The notes below the pieces were generated by a model, which worked only from the letters and a program-made list of their open reading frames with translations, did no database searches and had not been told where the DNA came from. Below are positions 18,479 through 28,264 of a stretch of 59,926 nt of DNA, in pieces. Source of the DNA: Escherichia coli. GTDB lineage: Bacteria > Pseudomonadota > Gammaproteobacteria > Enterobacterales > Enterobacteriaceae. Both the position numbers and the translations under genes were made by a program. Each line of letters opens with the position of its first letter. Positions within the stretch are counted from its first letter, which is position 1. Location of the stretch: assembly GCF_003334765.1 (NCBI RefSeq), contig NZ_QOWT01000024.1. One strand, 5' to 3'.

Positions 18479-21040
18479 TTACACCAGGCTCTTCAAGCGA
18501 TAAATCCACTCCAGCGCCTGACGCGGGGTGAGTGAATCCGGATCAAGATTTTCCAGAGCTTCGACCGCAGGCGAAGTTTCTTCTGGTACTGACAGCAAAG
18601 ACATTTGCGTACCATCCACTTGCGTAGCGGCGGCGTTCGGCGAAATGCTTTCCAGCTCACGCAGCTTTTGCCGTGCGCGCTTAATAACCTCTTTTGGCAC
18701 GCCTGCCAGAGCTGCAACCGCCAGGCCGTAGCTTTTGCTCGCCGCGCCATCCTGCACGCTGTGCATAAAGGCAATGGTGTCGCCGTGCTCCAGTGCATCG
18801 AGATGCACGTTAGCGACGCCTTCCATTTTCTCCGGTAACTGGGTCAGCTCGAAATAGTGGGTAGCAAATAACGTCAATGCCTTAATCTTATTCGCCAGAT
18901 TTTCCGCGCACGCCCACGCCAGCGACAGACCATCGTAGGTGGACGTTCCACGCCCGATCTCATCCATTAACACCAGACTGTATTCGGTGGCGTTATGTAA
19001 AATATTGGCGGTTTCAGTCATCTCCACCATAAAGGTTGAGCGCCCGGACGCCAGGTCATCTGCCGCGCCTACGCGGGTAAAGATGCGATCGATAGGTCCA
19101 ATCTCGACTTTTTGTGCCGGTACATAGCTGCCGATGTAGGCCATCAGCGCAATCAGTGCGGTCTGGCGCATATAGGTACTTTTACCGCCCATGTTCGGAC
19201 CGGTGATGATCAACATGCGGCGCTGCGGCGACAGATTCAGCGGGTTGGCGATAAATGGCTCATTCAGTACTTGTTCAACTACCGGATGGCGACCTTCGGT
19301 AATGCGAATGCCCGGTTTATCAATGAAGGTCGGGCAGGTGTAGTTCAGGGTATAGGCCCGTTCCGCCAGGTTAACCAGCACGTCGAGTTCCGCCAGCGCG
19401 CTCGCGCTCTGTTGCAACGCTTCCAGATGCGGCAACAGCAGGTCGAACAGCTCTTCATAAAGCTGTTTTTCCAGTGCCAGTGCTTTGCCTTTTGAGGTGA
19501 GAACTTTATCTTCGTACTCTTTTAGCTCTGGAATGATGTAGCGCTCGGCGTTTTTCAGCGTCTGGCGACGCATGTAGTTGATGGGTGCCAGATGGCTTTG
19601 CCCACGGCTGATTTGAATGTAGTAGCCGTGCACCGCATTAAAGCCAACTTTCAGCGTGTCCAGGCCGGTACGTTCACGCTCGCGGACTTCCAGACGCTCC
19701 AGATAATCGGTCGCGCCGTCAGCCAGCGCGCGCCACTCATCCAGCTCTTCGTTATAGCCCGATGCGATAACACCACCGTCGCGTACCAGCACCGGCGGTG
19801 TGTCGATGATTGCTCGCTCCAGCAGATCGCGCAGCTCGGCAAACTCGCCCATCTTCTCACGTAGCGCCTGTACCGGTGCACTATCGACAGTTTCTAACTG
19901 CGCACGCAGCTCCGGCAGTTGCTGGAAAGCGTGGCGCATACGGGCCAGATCGCGTGGGCGAGCAGTTCGTAAAGCCAGACGTGCCAGAATACGTTCCAGG
20001 TCGCCGACCTGACGCAGTACCGGCTGTAGCCCGGCGGTGAAATCCTGCAATGCGCCAATAGTTTGCTGGCGCTCAAGCAACACGCGGGTATCGCGCACTG
20101 GCATATGCAGCCAGCGTTTCAGCATACGGCTGCCCATCGGCGTGACGGTGCAGTCGAGCACAGAAGCCAGCGTATTTTCCGCACCACCCGCCAGGTTCTG
20201 GGTGATTTCCAGATTACGACGCGTCGCGGCATCCATAATGATGCTGTCCTGCTCACGTTCCATGGTGATGGAACGAATATGCGGCAGAGTCGTACGTTGG
20301 GTATCTTTCGCATACTGCAACAGACAACCGGCAGCACAAAGTCCGCGCGGCGCGTTCTCGACGCCAAAACCGACCAGATCGCGGGTCCCAAATTGCAGAT
20401 TCAACTGCTGGCGCGCGGTGTCGATTTCAAACTCCCACAGCGGGCGACGGCGCAGGCCGCGACGGCCTTCAATTAACGACATTTCAGCAAAATCTTCTGC
20501 ATACAGCAGTTCCGCAGGATTAGTGCGTTGCAGTTCTGCCGCCATCGTTTCGCGGTCAGCCGGTTCGCTCAGGCGAAAACGCCCGGAACTGATATCCAGC
20601 GTCGCGTAGCCGAAACCTTTGCTGTCCTGCCAGATAGCCGCCAGCAGGTTGTCCTGACGCTCCTGCAACAGGGCTTCATCGCTGATGGTGCCTGGCGTAA
20701 CGATACGCACAACTTTGCGCTCAACCGGACCTTTGCTGGTCGCCGGATCGCCAATTTGTTCGCAGATGGCAACGGACTCTCCCTGATTCACCAGTTTGGC
20801 GAGATAGTTTTCCACCGCATGGTAGGGAATCCCCGCCATCGGGATCGGCTCTCCCGCCGAAGCACCGCGTTTGGTCAGTGAAATATCCAGCAGTTGCGAC
20901 GCGCGTTTTGCGTCGTCATAAAACAGTTCATAAAAATCACCCATCCGGTAAAACAGCAGGATCTCGGGATGCTGGGCTTTCAGCCTGAGATACTGCTGCA
21001 TCATGGGCGTATGGGCGTCGAAATTTTCTATTGCACTCAT
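18479..21040 (-). CDS. mutS: DNA mismatch repair protein MutS
   Basis: 853 aa ORF, N-terminus [21 protein letters not shown], Walker [10 protein letters not shown]. Confidence 0.97.
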
Positions 21041-21286
21041 GGGGTTATGTCCGGTTCCCTGATATTAAATGGGGTGTGATGGTTTTTATTTTCGTTGTAA
21101 TCACATAAGGCGCACATGATACCGGAGTTAATCATTTCAGGGGAAGAAGCGAACGGCGAGTTCTTGATGCTGGTTCCGGGAAAGATGCTGTTTTGCAGCT
21201 TTTGCGTGATGCTTATGAAGCAAGTACGCAAAATTGTATCGGTTGGCTAACCCTTCTTCTTTGGAGTCATAGTGCCCTTTAAGATT

Positions 21287-21309
21287 AAGATGTAATATAA
21301 ATACATCTT
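21287..21309. promoter_or_regulatory. NsrR-type operator upstream of ygbA
   Basis: AAGATGTAATATAAATACATCTT, inverted repeat AAGATGTA-N7-TACATCTT, 18 bp upstream of ygbA ATG and overlapping a likely -10. Confidence 0.75.
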
Positions 21310-21326
21310 AATGAGGTGGAGGCAGC

Positions 21327-21680
21327 ATGTCCGGCAAGCGTATCTCTCGTGAAAAACTGACGATTAAAAAAATGATCGATCTTTATCAAGCGAAATGCCC
21401 GCAGGCGTCAGCGGAGCCGGAGCATTACGAGGCGTTGTTTGTTTACGCGCAAAAGCGGCTGGATAAATGTGTGTTCGGCGAAGAGAAACCAGCCTGTAAG
21501 CAGTGTCCGGTGCACTGTTACCAGCCTGCAAAGCGTGAAGAGATGAAACAGATTATGCGTTGGGCCGGGCCGAGAATGCTGTGGCGTCATCCGATCTTAA
21601 CCGTGCGTCATCTCATCGATGACAAGCGTCCGGTGCCAGAACTGCCGGAAAAATATCGTCCGAAAAAACCTCATGAATAG
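21327..21680 (+). CDS. ygbA: Small Cys-rich protein of unknown function, nitric-oxide inducible
   Basis: 117 aa ORF; an NsrR-like operator sits immediately upstream. Confidence 0.85.
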   Translation: MSGKRISREKLTIKKMIDLYQAKCPQASAEPEHYEALFVYAQKRLDKCVFGEEKPACKQCPVHCYQPAKREEMKQIMRWAGPRMLWRHPILTVRHLIDDKRPVPELPEKYRPKKPHE

Positions 21681-21716
21681 TATGCCGGACAGGCAGATCT
21701 GTCCGGCAATTTGCAG

Positions 21717-23795
21717 TTAAATCAATGCCGATTTATCAATTCCCAGCCGCTTCATCCGTGACAGCAGGGTCGTGCGTTTCAGCCCCAGACGTTGCGCAGC
21801 GCCTTTAGGCCCGGCAACCACGCCGTTGGTTTCTTTCAGCACGCGCACAATCAACTGATATTCATCTTCGCCCTCCAGGGCGACAACCGTTGCGGCAGGC
21901 GGCGTTTCAGGTTCCGGTAAAACAATATCTGGCAATGACAGCTGCAGCACGTTACCGCGTGTTAGCAATACCGCGCGCTCAATGACGTTTTCCAGTTCGC
22001 GTACGTTACCCGGCCACTCCATGTTGCTCAAGGTGCGCAGCGTCTCGGCAGGAATGCTGTCGATATTGCGCCCCAGACGACGGGCAATTTTGAAGGTAAA
22101 GGCTTTCGCCAGCAGCGGAATATCTTCCGGACGCTCGCGTAGTGGCGGCAGGTGAATCGGGAATACGTTCAGGCGGTAATAGAGATCGCTACGGAACTCA
22201 CGGTCGGCGACCATTTTTTTCAGATCGCGGTTAGTCGCGGCGATTAGACGCACGTCCGTCTGAATGATTTTGTTGCTGCCGAGACGTTCAAACTCCTGTT
22301 CCTGCAATACACGCAGCAACTTCGGCTGTAACTCCAGTGGCATATCGCCCACTTCGTCGAGGAACAGGGAGCTTTTATCCGCCAGTTCAAAACGACCGAT
22401 ACGCTGGGCGCTGGCACCGGTAAAAGCCCCACGCTCATGACCAAACAGATCGCTTTCCAGCAATCCGGCAGGCATCGCCGCGCAGTTCATTTTGACCATG
22501 CGGCGATTATTACGCCCACTGAGATTATGGATCGCACGGGCAATCAGCTCTTTACCCGTGCCAGTTTCACCGAGGATCAGCACGGTACTGTCACTTTGCG
22601 CCACCATTTCAACTTGTTTAAGCACGCTGTACATGGCTTCGCTGCGGCCAATAATCTCGCCAAATTCACTATCAACATTGTTGAGCTGCTCGGTCAGGGC
22701 GAGGTTTTCATCAACCAGCCGTTCTTTCAGACGATGGATTTCCTGATAGGCGAGGGCGTTATCGACAGCGATTGCCACACGTTCGGCAATCTGGCGCAGT
22801 AAATTCAGATTGGTAGTGGTAAACACTTTCTCTTCGCATTGCGCCAGTTTCAGCACGCCCAGCATGGTGTCGCCAGACATCAGCGGTAACAGGCACAAGG
22901 TTTGAATCTGGTTGCCCCAGGTGTCGAACAACATGCGTTCATAGGGGGCTAAATCGTCCCGCTCGTGGAGATTGATCAGCAGCATCTCTTTACTTTTGAA
23001 CACGCGTTCGGTGAGGGTTCCGGCTTCATCGACTTCGCTCTGTTCGTGGGCGGGATGCTGTTTATCAAGATAGTGAGTGGAGTAGATGTTGAGTTTGTTT
23101 TTACGGTGGCTGCGTAAGACGATACTGATATCGTCAATGTCGAAATAGTAATGGATTTCTTTGGCGACTTCGCTGACCAGTTCGTCCATATCCAGGCGGG
23201 AAAGCACCGCGTTGGTGATGGCGACCAGGATGCGGAAGTTATCGCGTTCCCGGCATAACAACTCATAGTCGACATTGTTAACGACGCGGCTCTGGATTTG
23301 TTCGGTGACGACAGAAACGATCTGCGTAAATGTTTGCAGACGATTGAACTCTTTTTCGCTCCAGGGGCGATCGTCATAACGAATAAATTCACAGCCACCA
23401 AAAATATGCCCTTCCGCCGCCAGTGGCATCAGGCAATAGTGACCAAATTTTGGGTATAGCCCACCTGCGTCCAGCTGCGGCCAGGTTTCACAAAATTCTT
23501 CGTAACTGCAATGCAGCGTATCAGGGCGCGACAAAATGCTGCGTACCGGACCGTGTGCCAGAACAGTTTCGTCTTCATATTTAATGGGGGTGTCTTTTTC
23601 ACGCGACGCGTAATAAGACGCACGTTGAGTCTGCGCTTGCCACAACACAATAGCCGCGTTGTCGGCGAGCGCAGAACGCTTTACCAGTTGCGAAAGAGCC
23701 TCACACAGCGAGGCCAGATCGGGCTGCTGCAATAGTGTCCGAGTGATGTCGAACAACCCTTGTTGTCCGAGATCACTCATCGGTGTATATGACAT
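21717..23795 (-). CDS. fhlA: Formate hydrogenlyase transcriptional activator (sigma-54 dependent)
   Basis: ORF track 21717-23831; recognised N-terminus MSYTPMSDLGQQGLFD begins at the internal ATG at 23795, giving 692 aa; AAA+ sigma-54 activation domain with GETGTGKE and GAFTGA, C-terminal HTH. Confidence 0.95.
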   Translation of the reverse strand: MSYTPMSDLGQQGLFDITRTLLQQPDLASLCEALSQLVKRSALADNAAIVLWQAQTQRASYYASREKDTPIKYEDETVLAHGPVRSILSRPDTLHCSYEEFCETWPQLDAGGLYPKFGHYCLMPLAAEGHIFGGCEFIRYDDRPWSEKEFNRLQTFTQIVSVVTEQIQSRVVNNVDYELLCRERDNFRILVAITNAVLSRLDMDELVSEVAKEIHYYFDIDDISIVLRSHRKNKLNIYSTHYLDKQHPAHEQSEVDEAGTLTERVFKSKEMLLINLHERDDLAPYERMLFDTWGNQIQTLCLLPLMSGDTMLGVLKLAQCEEKVFTTTNLNLLRQIAERVAIAVDNALAYQEIHRLKERLVDENLALTEQLNNVDSEFGEIIGRSEAMYSVLKQVEMVAQSDSTVLILGETGTGKELIARAIHNLSGRNNRRMVKMNCAAMPAGLLESDLFGHERGAFTGASAQRIGRFELADKSSLFLDEVGDMPLELQPKLLRVLQEQEFERLGSNKIIQTDVRLIAATNRDLKKMVADREFRSDLYYRLNVFPIHLPPLRERPEDIPLLAKAFTFKIARRLGRNIDSIPAETLRTLSNMEWPGNVRELENVIERAVLLTRGNVLQLSLPDIVLPEPETPPAATVVALEGEDEYQLIVRVLKETNGVVAGPKGAAQRLGLKRTTLLSRMKRLGIDKSALI

Positions 23796-23868
23796 TTTGT
23801 TCTTCCAGGAAAGCACCGCAAAGCGGTGCAAAAGGTCATTGACTAACTATAGGAGATTTAGAATTTTA

Positions 23869-27559: not shown

Positions 27560-27605
27560 GTCGATGATGTCGAAATGACACGTCGACACGGCGACGAAAT
27601 TCATC
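27560..27605. promoter_or_regulatory. Putative FhlA upstream activating sequence (hypA-hycA intergenic)
   Basis: TGTCGATGATGTCGAAATGACA ... CGACGAAATTCAT; the same motif recurs in the hycA-hycB intergenic region. Confidence 0.6.
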
Positions 27606-27645
27606 TTTAGCTTAAAAATCTCTTTAATAACAATAAATTAAAAGT

Positions 27646-28207: not shown

Positions 28208-28264
28208 CGTGTCGATGAGTGTCGAAAATGACATTTCATCGGCATGTTTTCGTCAAAAATGACA
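28208..28264. promoter_or_regulatory. Putative FhlA upstream activating sequence (hycA-hycB intergenic)
   Basis: GTGTCGATGAGTGTCGAAAATGACA ... TTCGTCAAAAATGACA, paralogous to 27560-27605. Confidence 0.6.

Follow-up and report, generated by a model that had tools for sequence, protein, structure and literature searches.

The protein NsrR of Streptomyces coelicolor is a structurally characterised repressor of the Rrf2 family with a [4Fe-4S] cluster. As far as the available text of the reports on this protein extends, it is the holo-[4Fe-4S] form that binds DNA, and this binding is abolished by NO (PMC11500311, PMC5411485, PMC4861436). At the S. coelicolor hmpA operator, as described in these accounts, a holo dimer sits on an inverted repeat of the promoter until NO releases it, and the same logic is considered here for the ygbA gene of Escherichia coli. 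The comparison is made with a different organism, in which the NsrR regulon consists of just three genes according to PMC4861436.

In E. coli, ygbA was first described as a target of NsrR in 2005-2006, and its site is also listed in genome-wide tables that have been published. The motif was defined by Rodionov et al. in 2005, in a paper in which NsrR repression of E. coli hmp, ytfE and ygbA is mentioned as a personal communication (PMC1274295). Regulation of ygbA by NsrR in E. coli K-12 was described by Bodenmiller & Spiro in 2006, as cited by later papers, and occupancy of the K-12 ygbA promoter by NsrR was found in the ChIP-chip study of Partridge et al. in 2009, as cited in PMC5320621. In strain CFT073, ygbA ranks with the genes that nitrate/NO induces most strongly. 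ChIP-chip is cited as having located NsrR at ygbA in K-12, whereas ChIP-seq in CFT073 did not detect it there, a result that the authors of the latter study regard as a probable false negative (PMC5320621). The sequence-only reading of the present locus had predicted derepression of ygbA by NO through NsrR, and this agrees with the published work (PMC1274295, PMC5320621, PMC2884951). That reading would have been refuted by unchanged ygbA expression in an nsrR deletion; the published value for an nsrR mutant of Salmonella is a 31.8-fold rise (PMC2884951). The NsrR-dependent repression, the in vivo occupancy in K-12 and the chemistry of the cluster with NO are taken here from these papers.

The window is the whole stretch of E. 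coli DNA that was analysed, 59,926 nucleotides in length. A 901-bp query around the operator is 100% identical to K-12 MG1655 and to many other strains, and nsrR (b4178) is annotated in the K-12 genome (NC_000913.3). The features of the locus are as follows.

18479-21040, minus strand: mutS.
21041-21326: the mutS-ygbA intergenic region, 286 bp.
21284-21312: full perfect palindrome of the K-12 allele, with 11-nt arms and a 7-nt spacer, as given by a repeat finder.
21287-21309: NsrR operator of the 11-1-11 type (AAGATGTAATA T AAATACATCTT), assigned by matrix score and by the homologous published CFT073 site.
21287-21297, plus strand: gene-distal half-site AAGATGTAATA, the weaker one, 7.5 bits.
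21293-21298, plus strand: inferred -10 hexamer TAATAT inside the distal half-site, placed by sequence.
21299-21309, minus strand: gene-proximal half-site AAGATGTATTT, the best 11-nt half-site in the window.
21318-21322, plus strand: Shine-Dalgarno sequence GGAGG, 4 nt before the ygbA ATG, read from the sequence and conserved among E. coli strains.
21327-21680, plus strand: ygbA, the regulated gene, 117 amino acids, from the open reading frame and the RefSeq annotation.
21684-21707: GC-rich hairpin GCCGGACAG...CUGUCCGGC within the 36 bp that separate the convergent genes ygbA and fhlA.
21717-23831, minus strand: fhlA.

The hairpin at 21684-21707 folds as RNA with an energy of -20.2 kcal/mol (z -4.68; none of 200 shuffles is equally stable) and is probably a terminator common to ygbA and fhlA; it is not called by the strict terminator scan because it lacks a T-run. 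On the other side of the gene, the region 21184-21240 contains a terminator-like hairpin (GCTGTTTTGCAGC, then TTTTGCG; 21187-21199) and two more inverted repeats, which might insulate the divergent mutS and ygbA promoter regions. The RefSeq pipeline also annotates a 44-residue 'hypothetical protein' at 21116-21250 on the plus strand, between mutS and ygbA. Other E. coli lineages have this open reading frame frameshifted or unannotated, and since the region also lacks conservation between genera, it is probably not a real gene.

The sequence AAGATGTAATATAAATACATCTT, which had been pointed out as a near-perfect NsrR operator, is found at exactly 21287-21309. It had been described as an inverted repeat with 8-bp arms around a 7-nt spacer; the spacer is correct, whereas the arms were understated, as the repeat finder gives 11-nt arms that are 100% complementary, at 21284-21294 (ATTAAGATGTA) and 21302-21312 (TACATCTTAAT). 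The distance to the ygbA start had been given as 18 bp, which is the offset as counted; 17 nt lie between the site and the ATG at 21327. Perfect inverted repeats with arms of at least 11 nt and a spacer of 0-9 nt occur at three distinct loci in the whole window, compared with 0-2 in each of 30 dinucleotide shuffles, mostly 0. The inverted repeat upstream of ygbA exceeds chance.

The scan with an NsrR matrix, suggested as a check by the sequence-only reading, was done with a symmetrised weight matrix built from the 25 other distinct 11-1-11 sites of Table 4 in PMC5320621, with the ygbA site left out. The site at 21287-21309 scores 23.1 bits, the top of all 59,926 bases and a value between the extremes of the training sites (12.6 and 32.2 bits). 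When the window is shuffled 300 times with its dinucleotides preserved, this score is reached once; under an i.i.d. model, 0.0005 such sites are expected per window. The two half-sites contribute unequally: the proximal half-site AAGATGTATTT scores 15.2 bits, when the maximum possible is 15.9, and the distal half-site AAGATGTAATA is off the NsrR consensus at positions 9 and 11.

The architecture of the site is that of the E. coli ytfE, hmp and hcp operators (consensus AAGATGCATTTnAAATGCATCTT), which are controlled by the same regulator: the 23-bp layout is the same, and the outer AAGATG...CATCTT arms are shared. Its score lies between those of hmp (21.3 bits) and hcp (27.3 bits). The outer edge of the operator is 40 nt before the ygbA ATG, and the corresponding distances in K-12 are 49 nt for ytfE, 49 nt for hmp and 37 nt for hcp. 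The ytfE site is also palindromic, with a shorter perfect palindrome than the K-12 ygbA allele, in which the 11-nt arms include three flanking bases. The ygbA site differs from the generic E. coli NsrR sites in the inner part of the distal half, which reads CATTT in the generic sites and TAATA in ygbA, with the central base conserved as T. The published CFT073 ygbA site (AAGGTGCATTTATATTACAACTT in Table 4 of PMC5320621) is the same site at the same locus, read on the opposite strand, and the K-12 allele differs from it at positions 4, 17 and 20. Assignment of the ygbA site to the 11-1-11 family, as first proposed from the sequence, is thus borne out by the matrix score, the position, the presence of nsrR and the conservation across genera.

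For the comparison across genera, 57 diverse YgbA homologues were aligned, and the alignment was used to fetch 80 loci from species genomes. In 24 of the 30 Enterobacterales ygbA loci, the 300 nt before the gene contain a site that scores 15 bits or more, and in each case this is the best site of the approximately 6-kb locus. Two further loci have sites of 12-14 bits at the same position, giving 26 of 30 at 12 bits or more. The rest of these Enterobacterales loci (168.5 kb) contains six matches of at least 15 bits, which corresponds to an approximately 74-fold enrichment per nucleotide upstream of ygbA. When the upstream regions of 15 Enterobacteriaceae are aligned (the window and 14 other genera), the operator is the sole conserved block, and its position is nearly fixed, 38-45 nt from the ATG. 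Like the motif match, its significance and the presence of nsrR, this conservation and positional constancy are observations of the present analysis. NsrR-type sites are likewise present upstream of the homologues in Vibrio ezurae, V. breoganii and Photobacterium aquimaris, and the P. damselae homologue has been reported to be co-regulated with hcp (PMC10308900).

Within E. coli, the ygbA intergenic region is unusually polymorphic, and about 1,000 of 5,420 genomes share just 80-90% identity across 410 bp. In the seven alleles taken as representative, the surroundings of the operator are polymorphic, and the operator itself differs at positions 4, 17 and 20 only; these positions are degenerate in the NsrR matrix, and all the E. 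coli alleles score 21-24 bits. The exact K-12 57-mer is present in 2,106 of 5,382 genomes. Other E. coli lineages and E. albertii carry less symmetric alleles, mismatched at positions 4/20. The allele of strain SCU-116 (AAGTTGTAATATAAATGCACCTT) is the reverse complement of the published CFT073 ygbA site, and E. albertii carries the same allele; the CFT073-type allele is therefore probably ancestral, as judged from its distribution among these sequences. Between this allele, shared by B2, CFT073 and E. albertii, and the K-12 allele there are three substitutions (positions 4, 17 and 20), each of which raises the palindromic symmetry. On that reading, the perfect palindrome would be a derived trait of the K-12 lineage that the site as such does not require. 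There is also a smaller possibility that the more symmetric K-12 allele binds NsrR more tightly than the B2/CFT073 allele; if true, this would explain why the ChIP result is positive in K-12 and negative in CFT073.

The deviation of the distal half-site from the generic motif coincides with a conserved hexamer. Orthologous ygbA operators have a conserved TATTAT, or TAATAT in Escherichia, at site positions 7-12, and this hexamer is absent from the generic NsrR motif. At position 11, A is found in 74% of the ygbA operators versus T in 80% of the generic motif, and position 12 is T in 87% of the ygbA operators and unconstrained in the generic motif. In TAATAT, positions 2 and 6 are the A and the T that a -10 element requires. 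On account of this conserved hexamer with the A and T of a -10 element, the -10 has been placed at 21293-21298, and a block of RNA polymerase is suggested. The strict sigma-70 consensus scan of 21000-21760 finds no promoter, and the best -35 for the proposed -10 has 2 of 6 bases matching, so that we only infer an overlap of the operator with the ygbA core promoter, as well as steric occlusion as the mode of repression.

The mechanism would then be as follows. When NO is absent, the holo-NsrR dimer would occupy both 11-bp half-sites, of which the strong one is nearer to ygbA and the weak one most likely bears the -10 hexamer TAATAT (21293-21298). With the -10 in the weak half-site, NsrR occupancy would shut out RNA polymerase and keep ygbA off. 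On exposure to NO, nitrosylation of the cluster would take NsrR off the DNA, and ygbA would be transcribed.

Other explanations of the palindrome have been considered. It could form an RNA hairpin in a longer ygbA leader, hiding the Shine-Dalgarno sequence and exerting translational or attenuation control. The RNA of 21275-21330 is indeed predicted to fold with -15.8 kcal/mol (z -4.08; a stability reached by none of 200 shuffles), and an outer helix, CCUUUA/UGGAGG, would cover the Shine-Dalgarno sequence, but any palindromic operator folds on paper, and the palindrome would be transcribed whole only if transcription started upstream of 21284. The arms show no covariation among 23 distinct orthologous sites: the paired fraction of 82.6% is what shuffling gives on average (82.6%), and the covariation score does not even reach its shuffle mean. 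Each half is conserved to the consensus independently, which fits the operator of a dimeric protein and argues against a hairpin. Moreover, perfect pairing is confined to the K-12 allele, mismatches at positions 4/20 being present in other E. coli and in E. albertii; the flanks that would form the outer helix are unconserved between genera; and an Rfam search of the operator region gives no family matches. Control by such a leader is therefore considered very improbable.

The palindrome could also be the operator of a regulator other than NsrR, such as Fur, FNR or a further member of the Rrf2 family (IscR, for instance), with NsrR acting indirectly. AT-rich palindromes are typical of many operators, the distal half-site is off the NsrR consensus, and the CFT073 ChIP-seq is negative at ygbA. 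Nevertheless, the matrix is built from NsrR ChIP-seq peaks only, and with this matrix, the ygbA site ranks first in the window and in 24 orthologous loci, and the proximal half-site comes close to the maximum (15.2 of 15.9 bits). NsrR has also been located at ygbA in K-12 by ChIP-chip, as reported in the citing literature. In a base-by-base comparison, 8 of 19 positions agree with the Fur box consensus, and the intergenic region has its two FNR-like matches at other places (21091 and 21206), with 2-3 mismatches each. It is as hard to believe in another regulator as in a leader hairpin. Finally, a functionless AT-rich repeat could occur by chance in promoter DNA, since the intergenic DNA is AT-rich and, with a background of 60% AT, about 0.8 sites of the 23.1-bit level are expected per 4.6 Mb. 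The same placement of the site across genera with unalignable flanks and the approximately 74-fold upstream enrichment speak against chance, as does the regulation of ygbA documented in the literature; this last explanation has a negligible probability and is effectively refuted by the conservation analysis.

The preferred reading is that 21287-21309 is an NsrR operator from which an NsrR dimer represses ygbA, probably by occlusion, and that this repression is relieved by NO; we give it a probability of about 0.93. In view of the published repression, the published occupancy and the published site table, the finding of the ygbA operator is correct and already known. As a regulatory element, it has been described before, it is ordinary, and nothing new is added to it here.

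The location of ygbA between mutS and the fhlA/hyp genes had been called notable. As a functional linkage, this is unsupported: fhlA is adjacent in 12 of the 80 ygbA-family loci, all of them Enterobacteriaceae, and mutS adjoins the ygbA homologue in 6 of the 80. In many E. coli strains, a TOBE/Mop gene (molybdopterin-binding, similar to the C-terminal part of ModE) is present between ygbA and fhlA, and the fhlA/mutS interval is a documented hotspot of island insertion, with SPI-1 and sitABCD being located there in Salmonella (PMC7232297). Given the few fhlA-adjacent loci, the TOBE/Mop insertion and the island hotspot, the adjacency is no evidence of shared function. The inserted TOBE/Mop gene and a deletion in strain p4A, which takes ygbA and the end of fhlA, illustrate the plasticity of the ygbA-fhlA interval.

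Further NsrR matches are seen downstream in the same region. The runner-up of the window scan, and thereby its second-best full NsrR match, is AAATGACATTTCATCGGCATGTT (28226-28248) between hycA and hycB, with 16.9 bits; this site is itself one of the training sites. In CFT073, it is reported as the NsrR ChIP-seq peak of second rank, and hycB is strongly down-regulated under nitrate. A strong single half-site, AAGATGAATTT (27597-27607, 12.5 bits), is present in the hypA-hycA intergenic region, at the place where an NsrR peak near hypA has been found by both ChIP-chip and ChIP-seq in published studies. With the peaks at ygbA, hycB and hypA, a stretch of about 7 kb of the window therefore contains three reported NsrR-bound regions.

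The product of ygbA had been described as a small Cys-rich protein, in agreement with its length of 117 residues and with an invariant Cys/His motif. YgbA matches Pfam family PF11756 (YgbA_NO; E 1.4e-40, residues 4-106) and the NCBIfam equivalog NF007713 (PRK10410) with 274 bits, the cut-off being 234, and the family comprises 1,195 clusters at 50% identity. The name 'nitrous oxide-stimulated promoter', used by Pfam and NCBI, is an apparent misnomer for a nitric-oxide-induced protein. In the 57 diverse members, the invariant residues are C48, K54, C57, C60, H63 and C64, which include the motif C-x8-C-x2-C-x2-H-C. The structure prediction that had been proposed for YgbA is available as an AlphaFold model, which is all-helical and confident (pLDDT 93) and has the Cys/His motif in the 47-66 loop; the sequence search and the fold search give no solved relative and no recognisable fold relative. 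Most family members also have an N-terminal Y-C-x3-H...C-x2-C motif, of which the enterobacterial YgbA keeps C24 alone (residues 24-40, 21396-21446). As judged from its residues, the C-x3-H...C-x2-C part is a probable second metal site.

The gene neighbourhoods of distant homologues have also been compared. In a betaproteobacterial metagenome-assembled genome, the ygbA homologue comes last in a row that starts with a NarL-like gene and continues with an Rrf2 gene (42% identical to NsrR) and a YtfE/DnrN-like hemerythrin gene, and in two other distant genomes, a hemerythrin/RIC-like gene adjoins the ygbA homologue. This linkage, in 3 of about 50 distant loci, is a weak hint of a tie to the repair of NO damage. 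It is conceivable, though rather doubtful at this stage, that YgbA is a metal or Fe-S protein, with C48-x8-C57-x2-C60-x2-H63-C64 as its site, which acts beside the di-iron repair protein YtfE/RIC in recovery from NO damage and which, in the enterobacteria, has lost the N-terminal metal site.

Salmonella expresses ygbA at a high level inside the macrophage vacuole. Few enterobacterial genes are induced by NO as consistently as ygbA, and it belongs to a widespread family. The analyses direct the interest to the YgbA protein, whose Cys/His site is invariant and whose gene is occasionally linked to nsrR and ytfE-like genes.
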